NCBI GenBank assembly: GCA_002376885.1
Contig: DFOW01000004.1
Location: forward strand, 1,018-65,017
Reading direction: 5' to 3'
DNA length: 64,000 bases
Source: Patescibacteria group bacterium UBA3531
GTDB taxonomy: Bacteria; Patescibacteriota; Minisyncoccia; Phycocordibacterales; UBA3531
Below are positions 581 through 55,044 of this stretch, piece after piece; the stretch's first letter is position 1; every line of letters begins with the position of its first letter. The position numbers and the translations under genes were made by a program. The notes below the pieces were generated by a model, which was given only the letters and a program-made list of their open reading frames with translations, searched no databases and was not told the origin of the DNA.

Positions 581-887
581 TGGCTCCGCGGGCAGGACTC
601 GAACCTGCAACCAATACGTTACATCGATCCTATTGTTTCTAATAGGGATGGACTATATCATCATCCTTCCAATTATGATTAGGATGCAAGGCGCTTCGAC
701 CCCAAAATTGGGGGCTACTCCCGTAAGGGATAGTCTCTGAACCTTCCAAATAAAATCTGGCTTGGCTGCTGATTACCATCGTCTTCACGTTACGGCTTCC
801 AGCAATTCACCTTGTTTTTCAACCTACGTTTCCGTAGAAAGCTGCGTATCGCCACAGCGTACTGCTCTACCATTGAGCTACCGCGGA
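581..887 (-). tRNA. tRNA-Asn(GUU) interrupted by a group I intron in the anticodon loop (5' exon 854-887, intron 622-853, 3' exon with encoded CCA 581-621)
   Basis: Minus-strand 5' exon TCCGCGG-TA-GCTC-AATGGTA-GAGC-A-GTACG-CTGT. The 3' exon TAA-CGTAT-TGGTT-GCAGG-TTCGAGT-CCTGC-CCGCGGA-G-CCA completes the acceptor, D, anticodon and T arms. The spliced anticodon loop is CUGUUAA, i.e. GUU. The exon ends in U and the intron ends in G. Confidence 0.75.
622..853 (-). ncRNA. Group I self-splicing intron (232 nt) inside the tRNA-Asn gene
   Basis: On the minus strand it contains group I core elements P-like AAUUGCUGGAAG, Q AAUCAGCAG, R GGUUCAGAGACUA and S GAUAUAGUCC. The internal guide sequence GCAGC near the intron 5' end pairs with exon GCUGU, with a U.G wobble at the splice site. 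The terminal nucleotide is G. Confidence 0.7.
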
Positions 888-1041: not shown

Positions 1042-1398
1042 CTATTCATCTTCCCTCAAAATCTTTTCCATCTCCTTCCCTCTCGCAAGTTCGTCAATTA
1101 GTTTGTCTAAGTAACGAATCTCTCGCATCTTTTTCTCTTTTATATCTTCTACCCTAATGCCGCACACCATGCCTTTAATTAGTTTTCTTTTGGGGTTTAG
1201 TTTTGGGGCCTTTTTAAAAAAGGTTTCAAAGTCTGTTTCTTTTTTTAATTGGGTCTCCAGTTTTTTGGGAGTATATCCTGTTAGCCAGTGAATAATCTCA
1301 TCAACTTCTTTTTTAGTTCGTCCCTTTTTCTTCGCTTTATCAACATAAAGCGGATACACGCTCGCAAAACTCATTGTATAAATACGATGCTTTTTCAT
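1042..1398 (-). CDS. DUF2200-family protein
   Basis: The [31 protein letters not shown]-terminus is typical of the DUF2200 family. Confidence 0.55.
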
Positions 1399-15381: not shown

Positions 15382-16020
15382 ATGAAAGACGACATTATCC
15401 TTATAAACAAACCCCCGGGAATCACATCATACGATGTTATCCGCAAACTTAAACAAAAGTTCCCAGGAGAGAAGCTTGGCCATGCCGGCACCCTTGATCC
15501 TCTCGCAGAGGGGCTTTTACTGGTTGGGATTGGGAAAGGCACAAAAAAACTAAAAGACTTAATCGGGTTCCCTAAAACCTATGAAGCAACTGTTCTTATT
15601 GGTAAGAAAACAACAACCGGAGATTTGGAGGGAGATATTACTGAAGAAAAGAATGTTGAGAGTCTTACTGAAAAAGAAGTCCGGGATGTTTTAGAAGAGC
15701 TGACAGGAATAATCAGAATCCCTATTCCCCTTTATTCTGCTATTAAATACAAAGGTAAGCGCTTGTATAAACATGCTCGAGAGGGCGCAGACATAGAGAC
15801 ACCCCATGGTGATATGGAAGTTCATTCAACCACCTTAAACAACCTAAAAAAAGAAGGGGCATATTATTATCTTGATCTTACGCTTTCTGTTGGGAGCGGG
15901 ACCTATATTCGCTCAATTGCAGAAGAGATTGGAAAACGTTTAGGATACCCCGCGACCACAGCCCATCTTAAAAGGACATCTATTGGAGAGTATTTTTTAG
16001 AAGATGCGCAAAGCATATAA
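15382..16020 (+). CDS. truB: tRNA pseudouridine(55) synthase
   Basis: GHAGTLDP catalytic motif. Confidence 0.9.
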   Translation: MKDDIILINKPPGITSYDVIRKLKQKFPGEKLGHAGTLDPLAEGLLLVGIGKGTKKLKDLIGFPKTYEATVLIGKKTTTGDLEGDITEEKNVESLTEKEVRDVLEELTGIIRIPIPLYSAIKYKGKRLYKHAREGADIETPHGDMEVHSTTLNNLKKEGAYYYLDLTLSVGSGTYIRSIAEEIGKRLGYPATTAHLKRTSIGEYFLEDAQSI

Positions 16021-16024
16021 AACA

Positions 16025-16050
16025 AAAATACCCCGAGTCGGGGTATTTTT
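16025..16050 (+). terminator. Rho-independent terminator after truB
   Basis: aaaataccccga-gtc-ggggtattttt. Confidence 0.7.
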
Positions 16051-16067
16051 GTTTGGTCAATTTCAAA

Positions 16068-17246
16068 TTAAGACCAGAGTCTGTTTTTGAGTAAATGAAG
16101 CACACTTCCAAATGTTGCAAGGAAGAGAATAAACGATGCCAAGAACCCAATAACAGGAATAAGCATGAGTGCCAAAAGCACTACCACTCCTACAATCGCT
16201 GTTACCCAATCAAGTCTGATATCATCGCTTCGTGTTGCAAGCTTAATAGCAAGCGCTCCAATAACCACACTTGTTGCAAGTTTTGCAGCAAGTAATACGG
16301 TCATGTATCCAAGTCCAAGCAAGAAACCAAGAGGCATTCCAATAAGGGTAATGAGAAGAATGAATGCCAAAATTGGGAGAATAATGAGCGCCACAAATCC
16401 TACTCCTACACTCTTCCAAAATGATCGTGCTACATGAGACACGACACTTCGTGTTCCATCTTTTGCTGCGTAGACAAGAATAAGAGCCACCACCAAAAGC
16501 ATAAGGGCCATGGTTGTTACCCCAAATCCTAGGATTTTTTCTCCTGTTGGAGGGGCATCGCTTCTCATAACTTCTTCAAAGGTGAGTTCTCCTCGAACCG
16601 TTGCACCTTCGTCAATTTTTGCTTCTTTTGACGATTCATAGACACCACCACCAATGTTTGCGCCGTTACCAATCACAAGTCCGTCTTGAACTTTTGCATT
16701 AAGTGACCCAAGAATTGTTCCATTGATCCGGAGTTCTCCTCCTTCAACTCGAACATCTCCTGTTACCGTTCCGTCAATCGTGGTAAGTCCACCAAACACA
16801 ACCACATCTCCTGACACGGTTGCGCCCGATACCAAGTGCACTACCCCACCAGCGGCGACAACATCACCACCAACAGCATTTGCTACTTGAACGTTTCCTC
16901 CTGCTACTCGAAGATCATCTCGGACAAATCCCAAAATGTTTACGTCACCCCCTGCAACAAGAGCATCCCGGCCAACACCACCAGAGACAGTTACATTACC
17001 CCCTGCTCCAATAAGGTTCCCGGATGTTTCTCCAAGAACAGTAACTTCACCTCCTGCAATAAGAAGGTCTCCTATAACGTTGCCTGAGAGTGTTGCAACA
17101 CCCGCAGCAACGTACAAATCGTCACGAACGGTTTCTCGTTCAGGAAGAGCAAACTCCTCTCCCCCTTCAAAGGTTGCTCCATACACAGTCGCCGTTCCAA
17201 AAACTGCGACAAACAAGAGCACACCCAAGGCTATAAATTTATTCAT
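16068..17246 (-). CDS. Bactofilin-like (polymer-forming cytoskeletal, DUF583-type repeat) protein with signal peptide and C-terminal multi-TM region
   Basis: Tandem AGG(N/D)V.V.G repeats typical of bactofilin beta-helix proteins, followed by three TM helices. Confidence 0.5.
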   Translation of the reverse strand: MNKFIALGVLLFVAVFGTATVYGATFEGGEEFALPERETVRDDLYVAAGVATLSGNVIGDLLIAGGEVTVLGETSGNLIGAGGNVTVSGGVGRDALVAGGDVNILGFVRDDLRVAGGNVQVANAVGGDVVAAGGVVHLVSGATVSGDVVVFGGLTTIDGTVTGDVRVEGGELRINGTILGSLNAKVQDGLVIGNGANIGGGVYESSKEAKIDEGATVRGELTFEEVMRSDAPPTGEKILGFGVTTMALMLLVVALILVYAAKDGTRSVVSHVARSFWKSVGVGFVALIILPILAFILLITLIGMPLGFLLGLGYMTVLLAAKLATSVVIGALAIKLATRSDDIRLDWVTAIVGVVVLLALMLIPVIGFLASFILFLATFGSVLHLLKNRLWS

Positions 17247-17282
17247 TATAAAAAATGCTAGTTATTAATACCTACGTTCTAC

Positions 17283-17520
17283 CAAAAAACGGGACTCTCT
17301 ACAAGGAGGCAAGGTTAAAGGCCCGGCCGCCGAAGCGAACCGGGCCTTCTTCAACCTGAGAGTGCTCCAGCCGGAGCAGTTAGACGTGTCAGTGACATCC
17401 TTTGGCGTGAGGGTAGCCACATCGGGCCTCTCCACTTGCAGCCGGTCTCAGGCGGGGATGGTTTGAGACAACGAAGCCGGTTGAACCACCACCCTGCACG
17501 TGCTGGAAGCAGTCTAACAA
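17283..17520. other. GC-rich (~60%) ORF-poor intergenic island; candidate structured ncRNA or decayed GC-rich cassette
   Basis: Sharp GC jump between two AT-rich minus-strand genes. The minus strand has a GC hairpin (ggcccgg...ccgggcc) followed by a U-run. Internal direct repeats GGAGCAGTTAGAC and GGAAGCAGTCTAAC are present. Confidence 0.3.
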
Positions 17521-17570
17521 TTTGTATTTAAAAATCAACCCCGTCAAATAACCCCACAGGGTTAGCTTCG

Positions 17571-18344
17571 CTATTTGACCGGGTCAAGCTCTATCCCTAC
17601 TGGGCAGTGATCACTACCCAAAACATAATCTAGTATAAAAGCGCTTTTGAGATTCTTTTGCACATCAGGGCTCGTAATAAAATAGTCTATTCTCCACCCC
17701 ACGTTGCGGTCTCTGGCACGACTCTTCATATCCCACCAGCTGTAAGCATCACGTCTGTCAGGGTAAAAATGCCGAAAGGTATCAATATAGCCAGCGGCCA
17801 TAAGCTCATCAAACCAGGCGCGTTCTTCTTCCCGGAAGCCTGCCCTGCCTTCGTTTTCTTTTGGGCGGGCCAGGTCAATCTCTTCGTGGGCAACATTTAA
17901 ATCCCCACACATTACCACCTTGTGACCCTTTTTACGGAGTCCTTCCATAAATTCTAAAATCGCATCGTTGTATTCGAGCTTCATAGGAAGACGTTCTTCC
18001 ATACCACTGTTTGGAAAGTAACAGTTTATGAGTACAAAATCTTTAAAATAAGCAACGAGTGTTCGTCCTTCGTCATCAAATTTTTTAACACCAAATCCTT
18101 TTTCTACCCTCTCGGGTTTTATTTTTGTATAAATAGCAACGCCATTAAACCCTTTACGTTTTTTTGTATGGTCAAAATATCCGGTGTAGCCGTCGGGATT
18201 CTTTAATTCATCTACCAAATCCACTTCTTCTGCCTTTGTTTCTTGAAGACACAAAATATCGGGACTGTCGTCATATAACCAATCCAAAAATCCATTTTTG
18301 TGAGTCGCCCGTAACCCATTCACATTCCAAGACAATATTCGCAT
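17571..18344 (-). CDS. xthA: Exodeoxyribonuclease III
   Basis: MRILSWNVNGLRA...QETK N-terminal and GSDHCPV C-terminal motifs. The longer upstream extension in the ORF track is GC-rich and probably not translated. Confidence 0.9.
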   Translation of the reverse strand: MRILSWNVNGLRATHKNGFLDWLYDDSPDILCLQETKAEEVDLVDELKNPDGYTGYFDHTKKRKGFNGVAIYTKIKPERVEKGFGVKKFDDEGRTLVAYFKDFVLINCYFPNSGMEERLPMKLEYNDAILEFMEGLRKKGHKVVMCGDLNVAHEEIDLARPKENEGRAGFREEERAWFDELMAAGYIDTFRHFYPDRRDAYSWWDMKSRARDRNVGWRIDYFITSPDVQKNLKSAFILDYVLGSDHCPVGIELDPVK

Positions 18345-18435
18345 GAACTCGATTATACCAGACAAACTTGCAATAAAGGCCCTAGTTATATAAATTGGAT
18401 ACGGACTGGCAATCATGCCTGAAAGGAGCAGTACC

Positions 18436-18903
18436 GTGCAGGAGCACACCCATTCGTGGTCTGGCACCCAGATCGAAGGTTTCCGGCTGGTTGCCGGAGC
18501 AGAGATCCGAGGTACCGACCGCTACGATTCCTCGACGGGCAAGTGGGAGCCTCCGCCCCCTGCTGTCGGCCGCAACATGGACGACCCCTACGATCGGGGC
18601 CTCACCCTCGAGGAAGGGTGCCCGACCATGTGGATTCGTCCGGAGCTCTCCGACAACACGAAGGAGCTTCTCATGCTCCTCCGAGCGCGGCTTCTCGACA
18701 TCCATGAGAAGAGCATGACGGCTACGCGTCTCCCGATCGGGAGGTGGGAGCAGTATCCCGTCCCCAGCCGAGAGAGCGTGCAGGAGCTTCGTGACTGCGG
18801 GCTCGTCGCCCCCTACCAGGGCAAGACCTACGAGACCGAGTTCACGACGGTTCTCCGCCTGACGGAGCTCGGAAGGGAGACCGCCGAAGGACTCCTCTCC
18901 TGA
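18436..18903 (+). CDS. GC-rich cassette gene: hypothetical protein (GTG start after SD AAGGAG)
   Basis: About 62% GC. Upstream is TTGCAA...TATATA. It is followed by the hairpin terminator ggccccggccgcg...cgcgccggggcc. Confidence 0.45.
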   Translation: MQEHTHSWSGTQIEGFRLVAGAEIRGTDRYDSSTGKWEPPPPAVGRNMDDPYDRGLTLEEGCPTMWIRPELSDNTKELLMLLRARLLDIHEKSMTATRLPIGRWEQYPVPSRESVQELRDCGLVAPYQGKTYETEFTTVLRLTELGRETAEGLLS

Positions 18904-18912
18904 TCAACCAGA

Positions 18913-18953
18913 GGCCCCGGCCGCGTTCACACGCGCCGGGGCCTTTCATTTTT
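18913..18953 (+). terminator. GC-hairpin terminator (copy 1 of a duplicated terminator)
   Basis: ggccccggccgcgttcacacgcgccggggcc followed by tttcatttttg. Confidence 0.6.
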
Positions 18954-19044
18954 GTTGACAATATATTTTTTATATTGTAATTTTTTTTCAGGTGTACACG
19001 CGACGCAGTCGAGAGACACTGTCGCAAAAACACAGGAGCAAATC

Positions 19045-19698
19045 GTGTCTAGAAAAAACCTTGGACTGGACGTTGGACAAGCTCAGGAGCTCAAGCTTGC
19101 CTTCAGGCGTCATGATTGGGACAATGAGCTCATCAAGCGACTTTGCGAATCGAATATCCTGGGCGACGCCCTCGACATCCTTCGTGGAGACGCGCAAGCC
19201 GTTCCGATCGAACGTGTCGTCGACCTTGGAGCGGAGCCTGAGATCAAGGACGGTAGTGTGGTCGTCAAGCACGTGAAGCAGGGGGTGAAGCCTTGGCGCG
19301 ACATTCGTCTCGCCCTCATCGACCCCAGGGATCTGCACTACACCAGACTGGGGATCCCTTACGACCAAGAACCGCCTGATCAGAGGATCATGGAGATCAA
19401 CCCTCGAACCATGAGGCCACACTTCCTGAAGGGACAGCGCCCAGCGAACATCCTCATGAGGGATTTTCTCCTCGAGATCCCTCATCTGATCCCTCACGAC
19501 TGGGTCCCCAGGGCCCCAATCGTGTTCTGGGGGACGGTCTGCAAGAGCGATACCACCTACTGGGTTCCCGGGATCAACCAGGACTTCGGCGGGTGGTACG
19601 CTCACGATTGCCGGGTGGAGATGCCTCGCGATCGCATCATGCTCCGTAACTACGACAACCCCTGCGTCGTCCTGACGTCGGCACCGTCGATTGTCTGA
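19045..19698 (+). CDS. GC-rich cassette gene: hypothetical protein (GTG start after SD CAGGAG)
   Basis: About 60% GC ORF followed by a near-identical copy of the 18913 terminator. Confidence 0.45.
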   Translation: MSRKNLGLDVGQAQELKLAFRRHDWDNELIKRLCESNILGDALDILRGDAQAVPIERVVDLGAEPEIKDGSVVVKHVKQGVKPWRDIRLALIDPRDLHYTRLGIPYDQEPPDQRIMEINPRTMRPHFLKGQRPANILMRDFLLEIPHLIPHDWVPRAPIVFWGTVCKSDTTYWVPGINQDFGGWYAHDCRVEMPRDRIMLRNYDNPCVVLTSAPSIV

Positions 19699-19709
19699 AG
19701 TGTTCTGAT

Positions 19710-19750
19710 GGCCCCGGCCGCGTTCATGCGCGCCGGGGCCTTTCGTTTTA
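19710..19750 (+). terminator. GC-hairpin terminator (copy 2)
   Basis: ggccccggccgcgttcatgcgcgccggggcc followed by tttcgtttt. Confidence 0.6.
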
Positions 19751-19765
19751 CTATTATTCCCCTAG

Positions 19766-19891
19766 CACAACTTTCAAAAGAGCTCTCGGAGCCCGAGCGG
19801 GCCGGTGTCCCGCTTGCAGGACGAGCGAGGGTGAGAGCGAGCAAAAAATCCCCGCTGGGGGATTTTATTGCGTGTCTTTTGAAAGTTTGTG
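19766..19891 (+). repeat. MITE-like GC-rich repeat, copy A (TIRs CACAACTTTCAAAAG ... CTTTTGAAAGTTTGTG)
   Basis: Shares the core AGAGCTCTCGGAGCCCGAGCGGGC...GAGCGAGGGTGAGAGCGAG plus a 3' hairpin/T-run with copies at 34582, 45986 (inverted) and 49193. Confidence 0.65.
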
Positions 19892-19898
19892 CAAAACC

Positions 19899-21212
19899 CT
19901 AGTAACTCAAAAGCCTCTTCGCCTTCTCATGTGTCCTAATCTTCTCATGCGCCTTTGCTTCAATTTGCCTAATTCGCTCTCGGGTCACTCCAAACTCCTG
20001 CCCCACTTCTTCAAGCGTTCTCATTACCCCATCGTTTAATCCATAACGCATTTCAAGAATCTTTCTTTCTTTTGGTGAAAGGTCTCCTAAGATTTCACGA
20101 ATCTGATCTGCCAAAATTCTGCGGGCACTTTCATTATCGGGTGACAAAATTTTATCGTCTGGAATAAATTCTCCCAGTGTTGATTGTTCGTCTCCACTAT
20201 CCCCCACCGGCTTTTCGAGCGAGATGGTTGTTTGATTAATCTTTTCAATCTGATGAACCTTTTCTACTTCAATTCCCATTTCAGTTGCAACTTCCTCAGG
20301 AAGCGGTTCGCGTCCCAAGTCTTGCGACAATCGCCTTACAATTTGCTTATACTTTGCGATGGTTTCAACCATGTGCACGGGAATTCGAATGGTTCGAGAT
20401 TGATCGGCAAGTGCCCGGGTAATACTTTGCCTGATCCACCAGGTTGCATACGTTGAGAACTTAAATCCTTTGGTGTGATCAAACTTCTCTACCGCCTTAA
20501 AGAGCCCCAAATTTCCCTCTTGAATAAGGTCAAGGAGCGTAAGATCGGGACTCCTACCAATGTATTTTTTAGCGATAGAAACCACGAGTCTCAGGTTGGC
20601 TTTAGCGAGCGCTTTTCGTGCTTCATCGTCCCCTTCTAAAATTTGCTTTGCAAGATCTTTTTCATCTTTTGCACTAATCAATTTATATTGACCGATTTCT
20701 TTAAGGTACATTTGCACAGAGTCAAGAGATGGATCACCTTGTGGCAAATTCTTTAGAATATCATCTTTGTCATCGCCATCAGTATCGAGATTAATAAATC
20801 CACCCGATTCTAAAACATCAATTTGTGCTTCGCTAAATCGTTCATAAAGTTCCTCTAAAAAGAGGATATTATTCTCTACATCTGGGAATTCTTTTAAGAG
20901 CTCACTGTAAGTAACAAATCCTCTTTTTTTACCACGCCTAATAAGAGCGTCTGCTTTTGACTCAAGATCCTCCTTCTTTTTTGAAACACGTCTTGTTGCT
21001 TTTTTTGTGGTTTTTTTGGCAACCTTTTTCTTAGCTACTTTTTTGGTTTTTGTAGCTTTTTTTGTTGTTTTTTTAGCTACTTTCTTTTTTGAAACTTTTT
21101 TTAATGCCTTTTTTTTACTTGCCCGTCCGGTCGCCGGGCTTGTTTTTTTAGCCACCTTTTTTCGGGTGGTTTTTTTAGCCTTCTTTTTAGTTGTCTTCTT
21201 TTTTGCTGGCAT
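19899..21212 (-). CDS. rpoD: RNA polymerase sigma-70 factor RpoD with an N-terminal lysine/alanine-rich (histone H1-like) tail
   Basis: Regions 1.2-4 are conserved. The first ~75 aa are KKTT/AKK repeats. Confidence 0.9.
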
Positions 21213-54970: not shown

Positions 54971-54971
54971 G

Positions 54972-55044
54972 AGCCACCCGTCGGACTCGAACCGACGACC
55001 CACGCTTTACAAAAGCGTTGCTCTACCAACTGAGCTAGGGTGGC
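54972..55044 (-). tRNA. tRNA-Thr(UGU), no encoded CCA
   Basis: GCCACCC acceptor, D-arm GCTCAGTTGGTAGAGC, anticodon loop TTTGTAA, T-loop TTCGAGT. Confidence 0.85.

Follow-up and report, generated by a model that had tools for sequence, protein, structure and literature searches.

The locus examined here raises the question of how a tRNA-Asn(GUU) gene can yield a mature tRNA when its anticodon is interrupted by 232 nt, and to which known kind of intron, if any, the interruption belongs. The gene occupies 307 nt on the minus strand (positions 887-581) of the window, the whole 64-kb stretch of DNA that was analyzed. We identified the interrupting sequence as a group I intron without a homing endonuclease open reading frame. 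The best explanation, and a very likely one, is a Patescibacteria tRNA-Asn(GUU) gene that is split between positions 35 and 36 by an IA group I intron and spliced to a 75-nt tRNA. The observation made earlier by a model given the DNA letters (hereafter the sequence-only reading) is real, and its core interpretation is supported.

We analyzed the layout of the gene with ARAGORN and Rfam models, and the resulting features are collected in Table 1. The exons of 34 and 41 nt, lying 232 nt apart on the minus strand, had been placed exactly to the base. In full, the minus-strand sequence consists of exon 1 (UCCGCGGUAGCUCAAUGGUAGAGCAGUACGCUGU), an intron that begins GGCGAUACGCAGC, and exon 2 (UAACGUAUUGGUUGCAGGUUCGAGUCCUGCCCGCGGAGCCA). 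The joined exons form the canonical 75-nt cloverleaf that had been described, with a U1-A72 pair, the anticodon loop CUGUUAA, G73, and an encoded CCA, and ARAGORN called it as tRNA-Asn(gtt). On the genomic sequence, ARAGORN in intron mode returned tRNA-Asn (gtt) i(35,232), locating the split at 35/36 as first read. The Rfam model RF00028 (Intron_gpI, listed gathering score 50) matched positions 863..629 with 89.0 bits and an E value of 2.1e-21 over its full length (model 1-253 of 253), in agreement with the group I assignment. Default ARAGORN and the Rfam tRNA model left the split gene undetected, and the intron mode of ARAGORN was needed to find it. Across the 64-kb window, these two default searches identified tRNA-Gly, tRNA-His, and tRNA-Thr only, and no second tRNA-Asn was found within the window, as the sequence-only reading had also stated. 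No sigma-70-like promoter was identified upstream of the tRNA-Asn gene by a sigma-70 scan that may not suit this phylum. A serine recombinase gene is located 218 nt downstream of the tRNA-Asn gene.

Table 1. Features of the split tRNA-Asn(GUU) gene and of its intron, in positions of the window and in order along the minus strand.
Feature	Position	Strand	Description	Evidence
tRNA-Asn(GUU) exon 1	887..854	-	34 nt, ends ...GCUGU; acceptor 5' strand, D arm, anticodon stem 5' strand, loop C32 U33 G34 U35	Sequence; ARAGORN on joined exons and in intron mode
P1	841..858	-	858..853 (GCUGU/G, slash at the splice site) pairs with the internal guide sequence 846..841 (CGCAGC)	
Group I intron	853..622	-	232 nt, starts GGCGAU, ends ...GAUCGAUG	RF00028; homology; structure and covariation
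P2 hairpin, GAAA loop	823..838	-	6/6 pairs change on both sides	88.5% of cells paired
P3 5' strand	808..814	-	Pairs with 693..687; 3 pairs change on both sides	97.8% of cells paired
P4 enclosing P5	767..804	-	P4 is 804..799 with 772..767; P5 is 795..776; the P and Q blocks of the sequence-only reading	
P6 hairpin	741..766	-	Distal 5/5 pairs change on both sides; basal 2 pairs invariant	Distal part 89.3% paired
P7 5' strand	731..737	-	GAGACUA, within the R block; pseudoknot with 655..650	
P7.1-GUA-P7.2	698..730	-	P7.1 730..719, G-U-A 718..716, P7.2 715..698	
P3 3' strand	687..693	-		Same alignment as the P3 5' strand
P8 hairpin	663..685	-	4/5 pairs change on both sides	85% of cells paired
P7 3' strand	650..655	-	UAGUCC, within the S block	
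P9 hairpin	629..646	-	5/6 pairs change on both sides	81.5% of cells paired
Terminal guanosine (omega-G)	622	-	Abuts exon 2	Last intron base G in 31/31 aligned sequences
tRNA-Asn exon 2	621..581	-	41 nt, UAACGUAU...GCCA; U36 A37 A38, anticodon stem 3' strand, variable loop, T arm, acceptor 3' strand, discriminator G73, encoded CCA	Sequence; ARAGORN

The only point in favor of an assembly chimera, or of a chance likeness to a group I core, is that the window comes from a metagenome assembly. Three further assemblies of this population, made independently (JGI, ENA, and NCBI), contain the 307-nt gene without any difference, and an assembly artefact is ruled out because of this identity. The MAG taken as the source, GCA_002708165.1, is from the mesopelagic of Tara station 078. 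Together with the E value of the RF00028 match and tens of homologous loci that have the same exon-intron arrangement, these exact copies bring the probability of a chimera or a chance resemblance practically to zero.

For group I splicing, the 5' exon must end in U and the intron in G. The boundary U854/G622 is the only one that combines a U at -1, an omega-G, and a 7-nt anticodon loop, and the anticodon that it yields is GUU, with exon 1 ending CUGU and exon 2 starting UAA. The terminal G of the intron that had been pointed out is G622. The identity of the host gene as tRNA-Asn(GUU) was established from the ARAGORN call on the joined exons, the U1-A72 pair, G73, and homology to published tRNA-Asn, the joined exons being 73-87% identical to published Patescibacteria tRNA-Asn genes. 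Many homologous loci are nevertheless called Thr(tgt) i(33,...) by ARAGORN, and a boundary shifted by 2 bases, which would make the gene a tRNA-Thr(UGU) split at 33/34, is often reported by both ARAGORN and tFind; this ambiguity is also described by Nakagawa et al. (mSystems 2026, PMC13011429; bioRxiv 2025). For the window gene we consider a tRNA-Thr extremely unlikely, and the 33/34 annotation was rejected: the intron would end in A (...GAUCGA), breaking the omega-G rule, and U at -1 and omega-G would not be found together. Further, ARAGORN calls the window gene Asn and not Thr, the tRNA body carries Asn features and reaches 87% identity with tRNA-Asn of Patescibacteria, an intact tRNA-Thr(UGU) is already present elsewhere in the window, at 54971-55044, and the sequenced in vitro products of a homologue place the boundary at 35/36 (PMC13011429). 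The two-base ambiguity with Thr(UGU) follows from an intron end in GUG, and the window copy is free of it because its intron ends in AUG.

To the tRNA-Asn split at 35/36 we then applied a comparative analysis of structure. The window intron with 8 nt of each exon was aligned with 30 homologous endonuclease-free introns taken from species-representative genomes (31 sequences; MAFFT), and pairs (n = 65) were counted in an explicit structure comprising P1-P9, including P7.1 and P7.2, with P7 as a pseudoknot. Controls were made by sliding the 3' partners by 1-3 columns and by 500 shuffles. Standard pairs were found in 89.8% of cells versus 36-44% in the slid controls, bearing out the P1-P9 fold with its P3-P7 pairing. 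Both-sided change was observed in 37 of the 65 pairs, compensatory cells numbered 320 versus at most 97 in the slid controls, and none of the 500 shuffles reached any of the observed measures. Covariation was found in P2, P3, P5, P6, P7.2, P8, and P9, and P4, P7, and P7.1 were nearly invariant and fully paired. The MFE fold of the intron alone (-68.6 kcal/mol, z = -2.8) recovered most of the helices.

The core blocks named in the sequence-only reading (AAUUGCUGGAAG, AAUCAGCAG, GGUUCAGAGACUA, and GAUAUAGUCC) are all present and correspond to the 5' and 3' strands of P4 and P7. P4 is nearly invariant (98.4% paired), 3 pairs change on both sides in P5 (79.7% paired), and all 6 pairs of P7 are invariant and 100% paired in the 31 sequences; by analogy, the G735-C651 pair in P7 is the predicted guanosine-binding site. 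P7.1 (UCCCUUACGGGA) is 99.2% paired and P7.2 (GCCCCCAAUUUUGGGGUC) 90.2% paired, with both-sided change in 7/7 pairs of the latter, and the G-U-A linker between them is invariant in the alignment. The sequence-only reading was correct on P1, in which exon (G)CUGU is bound by the guide GCAG(C) and the 5' splice site lies at a U.G wobble, U854.G845. None of the 31 sequences departs from the C-G, U-A, G-C, and U.G pairs of this helix, and covariation is seen at the pair formed by the first intron base (GC in 15, AU in 6, and CG in 4). A two-pair P10 between the P1 loop and the start of exon 2 (U621-A847 and A620-U848) was also drawn and was unsupported in the relatives, with 45% of cells paired; it therefore does not account for the alignment of the 3' exon. 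The other 30 sequences have 86 invariant columns, and 107 columns are conserved to at least 90%; the window sequence agrees at every one of them and shows no sign of decay.

Subgroup IA2 is recognized by P7.1 and P7.2 joined by G-U-A (PMC3428280). In the window intron, a 33-nt insertion of two GUA-linked hairpins is present between the P7 5' strand and the P3 3' strand. This structure indicates subgroup IA (IA2-like) and not IC3, as an assignment made from the fold and not with the subgroup covariance models of the literature. IC3 of the tRNA-Leu(UAA) type was rejected on the presence of the 33-nt P7.1-GUA-P7.2 insertion and on the site, 35/36. According to PMC13011429, 25 of 28 introns at 35/36 belong to subgroup IA, and among the published tRNA introns of Patescibacteria almost all are IA and none is IC, whereas 81% of bacterial tRNA introns are IC. 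The introns of tRNA-Leu, tRNA-fMet, tRNA-Ile, and tRNA-Arg with which the sequence-only reading drew its comparison are of the IC3 type; the subgroup of the window intron, which it had left unnamed, is IA2-like. Like the window intron, the IC3 introns are anticodon-loop group I ribozymes of bacterial tRNAs, approximately 200-250 nt long and mostly without an endonuclease, with a P1 U.G and an omega-G. They are found, however, at other sites and in other host tRNAs (cyanobacterial and plastid tRNA-Leu(UAA) at 34/35, tRNA-fMet at 33/34, and tRNA-Arg(CCU) at 36/37; positions as given in PMC13011429), and in the tRNA-Leu intron of Nostoc the P3 3' strand comes immediately after the P7 5' strand, with no counterpart of the P7.1 and P7.2 of the window intron.

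Introns of this kind have been described in Patescibacteria. Nakagawa et al. surveyed 95 complete Patescibacteria genomes and reported group I introns at 35/36 in 15 tRNA-Asn(GUU) and 3 tRNA-Asp(GUC) genes, with HNH endonuclease genes in 4 of the tRNA-Asn introns (PMC13011429). Precise self-splicing in vitro was demonstrated there for 1 tRNA-Asn and 1 tRNA-Asp intron, and an omega-G to C mutant lost ligation. Among the published complete Patescibacteria genomes, split and unsplit genes for one anticodon rarely occur together, and the tRNA-Asn gene is mostly single. The study also attributes an earlier cataloguing of the site, as 'Asn.4Ug', to Williams (bioRxiv 2020), a preprint credited with raising the intron-split bacterial tRNA classes from 4 to 21. 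The window intron is thus new as an example only, its kind having been published.

Compared with 11 published tRNA-Asn 35/36 introns (PMC13011429, Table S3), the window intron showed 50-76% identity, with all core blocks colinear. The intron of GCA_016699245.1 (Paceibacteria; Table S3) is 76% identical over 229 aligned bases and shares the host gene, the site, a 34-nt exon 1 ending CUGU, the guide GCAGC, the P7.1 (UCCCnnACGGGA)-GUA-P7.2 arrangement, and the P3/P8/P7 core strings. At 259 nt compared with 232 nt it is the longer of the two, with more sequence 5' of the guide, and it ends in GUG, with the Thr(UGU) boundary ambiguity, whereas the window intron ends in AUG. The host of the window is a marine mesopelagic MAG and lies outside the complete-genome set of Nakagawa et al. 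The intron of GCA_016700035.1 (Saccharimonadia; Fig. 4 of PMC13011429), which self-splices in vitro at 35/36, is 64% identical to the window intron, and its exons are 83% identical. Gene, site, guide sequence, and core are as in the window, but the host belongs to a different Patescibacteria class and the P7-P3' region (GAGAGUGAGCCCAACAAUAAUCUCUC...) is unlike the P7.1/P7.2 of the window.

Similarity was also found outside tRNA genes. Phage IA2 introns, such as that in the Pf-WMP3 DNA polymerase gene (PMC3428280), share the core GGUUCAGAGACUA ... GAUGAUAUAGUCC and GUA-linked P7.1/P7.2, and phages of Alteromonas, Escherichia, Salmonella, and Campylobacter (DNA polymerase genes among the matches) showed partial identity of 71-78%, confined to the core. 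Unlike the window intron, those of phages are in protein-coding genes or other non-tRNA sequence, and many harbor endonuclease genes. Among viral contigs, 124 matches to the core pattern were identified, and none was in a split tRNA. Judged from these sequences, the P7 motif is generic to the intron class and would not serve as a marker of the tRNA-Asn lineage.

We scanned one genome per species for the P7-core pattern and took our figures from the first 120 matches listed. In at least 77 of these 120, the match lies in a tRNA-Asn(GUU) gene with a split at 35/36, and most of the records concerned bear the name of a Patescibacteria lineage. In 22 of the listed 77 the intron measures 524-630 nt, as large as the published members that bear an HNH endonuclease; 15 end in AUG, as in the window, and 59 in GUG, and 62 carry the Asn/Thr ambiguity. 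The other matches among the listed 120 were tRNA-Asp and tRNA-Tyr split at 35/36, CAU-anticodon tRNAs (TCAT/.../AAT), and non-tRNA sites. The view that a tRNA-Asn host is uncommon and worth documenting was not upheld, the class being both published with in vitro splicing (PMC13011429) and abundant in this list. In metagenomes, approximately 120 listed tRNA-Asn genes have exactly the acceptor and D-arm 5' half of the window gene, and 81 of them were unsplit, 31 were split at 35/36, and approximately 9 could not be assigned. A metagenome scan with the exact 3' part of exon 1 gave no match; since a JGI contig carries an exact copy, the scanned collection lacks this sample, and the negative has no bearing on intron-less alleles of the population. 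The tRNA-Asn 35/36 intron is frequent but polymorphic, as the at least 77 of 120 core matches and the 31 split versus 81 unsplit genes among those listed show.

With unsplit alleles this common in related organisms, and with a window that covers 64 kb of an incomplete MAG, the split gene might be a decaying or non-functional copy, Asn being decoded by an unsplit tRNA-Asn elsewhere in the genome. This is highly improbable: the 86 invariant and 107 near-invariant positions are kept, the helices are intact, the cloverleaf is perfect, and the sequence is identical in four assemblies, and in the published complete genomes coexistence of split and unsplit genes is rare and the tRNA-Asn gene mostly single (PMC13011429). 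The patchy presence among the listed genes with the same 5' half could also mean that the intron is actively mobile, acquired of late through homing or reverse splicing and not inherited vertically, as could the endonuclease-sized introns (524 nt or more) among the 77 listed homologues and the serine recombinase gene downstream. However, at 232 nt the copy is too short to hold an endonuclease gene, identity to its closest relatives is no more than 71-76%, giving no sign of recent transfer, and the recombinase is not part of the tRNA gene and has nothing to do with group I homing. We consider recent mobility very unlikely, and we retain the reading of an intact intron that is spliced from a tRNA-Asn gene.

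The host was assessed from RpoB (1048 aa), which is encoded in the window and has close relatives at 79-89% identity. Among its best 120 homologues, all those with names beyond 'bacterium' (approximately 70% identity) were Paceibacterota, Vogelbacteria, Taylorbacteria, Parcubacteria, or other Patescibacteria. The host is a marine member of the Patescibacteria, most likely of class Paceibacteria, as judged by RpoB similarity and not by a tree.

In group I introns, a guanosine attacks the 5' splice site, the omega-G then replaces it in the binding site, and the exons are ligated. In the mechanism that we propose for the window gene, the split gene would be transcribed as a single precursor, and the intron would fold into a P1-P9 core with the P7.1/P7.2 extension. 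The guide GCAG would pair with C32-U33-G34-U35 to form P1, with U35 in the U.G wobble, and exogenous guanosine bound in P7 would cleave after U35 (U854). G622 would then occupy the guanosine site, and ligation of the exons would yield the 75-nt tRNA-Asn with the loop CUGUUAA. The ligated product would carry GCUGUUAACG, and the spliced junction would read GTACGCTGTTAACGTATTGG (...GCUGU joined to UAACG...), as distinct from the unspliced junction sequences GCTGTGGCGATAC and GATCGATGTAACG. That the window copy splices is inferred because its homologue from GCA_016700035.1 self-splices in vitro. Splicing would also be needed for Asn decoding, since no second tRNA-Asn is present in the 64-kb window and published genomes rarely carry both forms. 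Further, the P1 target CUGU is common to all tRNAs with GUN anticodons, which would explain the presence of the lineage at 35/36 in tRNA-Asp and tRNA-Tyr.

The possibility that splicing is coupled to GTP was raised by Nakagawa et al. (PMC13011429). Applied to the window, the intron would be more than a selfish relic that the host tolerates and would be kept in the sole tRNA-Asn gene since guanosine-dependent splicing would tie mature tRNA-Asn to the GTP and energy state of the cell, an idea that we regard as very unlikely; if true, it would represent RNA-level control in a reduced genome with few regulators.

All biological questions that the locus poses were already posed by Nakagawa et al. 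2026 (PMC13011429), and the importance of the locus lies mainly in annotation. Default tRNA finders would make this MAG seem to be without tRNA-Asn, which would lower completeness estimates and possibly suggest a false decoding gap. The window copy, without the Asn/Thr boundary ambiguity, provides a clean reference case, and it adds an open-ocean, mesopelagic population of Patescibacteria to a published lineage that had been defined from complete genomes.

An ORF that starts 218 nt downstream of the tRNA-Asn 3' end matches Pfam Resolvase (E 4e-18), the catalytic domain found at the N-terminus of serine recombinases. Three other assemblies that cover this locus stop at window positions of about 402, 415, and 581. 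Together, the recombinase ORF and the assembly ends fit a strain-variable mobile element adjoining the tRNA-Asn gene. On the other side, a gap of 22 nt separates the start of the tRNA-Asn gene from an upstream terminator-like hairpin, which, with its T-rich tract, is probably the terminator of the DUF2200 gene lying further upstream. No sigma-70-like promoter for tRNA-Asn was found upstream in a sigma-70 scan that may not suit Patescibacteria.

Features annotated in the window
Feature	Position	Strand	Details
Serine recombinase ORF, N-terminal part	1-363	minus	Pfam Resolvase; ATG at 363; continues past the window edge
Terminator-like hairpin, then T-rich tract	909-923	minus	ATGCUGUUACAGCGU UCUUUUCAGA
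DUF2200 gene	1042-1398		upstream of tRNA-Asn
392-aa ORF	16068-17246		inside GC-rich stretch
PheRS-like protein, 384 aa	52824-53978	minus	Pfam domains

GC content reached 0.50 at 16001-20000, versus about 0.41 elsewhere in the window. The 392-aa ORF within this stretch had no match in the Pfam search, and no Rfam family was identified across 16001-20000 at gathering thresholds. In the 384-aa PheRS-like protein, the catalytic core of class II PheRS (tRNA-synt_2d) is followed by an anticodon-binding FDX-ACB domain at the C-terminus, a layout typical of the monomeric mitochondrial-type PheRS and not of the bacterial PheS/PheT pair. Our literature search found no paper tying a monomeric-type PheRS of this kind to Patescibacteria.

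Among the P7-core matches listed from the scan of 1 genome per species, CAU-anticodon tRNA genes were also split by introns with the same core pattern, with the junction ...UCAU|...|AAU (L005, L025, L068, L077, L084, L108, and L114, with Vibrio paucivorans and Photobacterium sp. among the organisms); ARAGORN mislabelled these tRNAs as Arg, Gln, or Leu. For tRNA-Asn 35/36 loci among the listed matches (L004-L123), ARAGORN in intron mode returned Thr(tgt) 33/34, a boundary shifted by 2 bases, in about half and Thr(cgt/ggt), His, Tyr, or Ser in a few, reproducing the mis-annotation of these genes described by Nakagawa et al. (PMC13011429).

Among the matches listed, tRNA-Asn genes split at 35/36 by the Patescibacteria-type intron also lay on contigs whose labels read "uncultured Gammaproteobacteria," "Bdellovibrionales," or "Candidatus Woesearchaeota archaeon" (L028, L029, L040, L041, L071, L073, L078, L079, L097, L101, L109, and L117). 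These contigs may be mis-binned or mislabelled, a suspicion that Williams 2020 voiced over a "Pacearchaeota" bin; the alternative is transfer of the intron across phyla.
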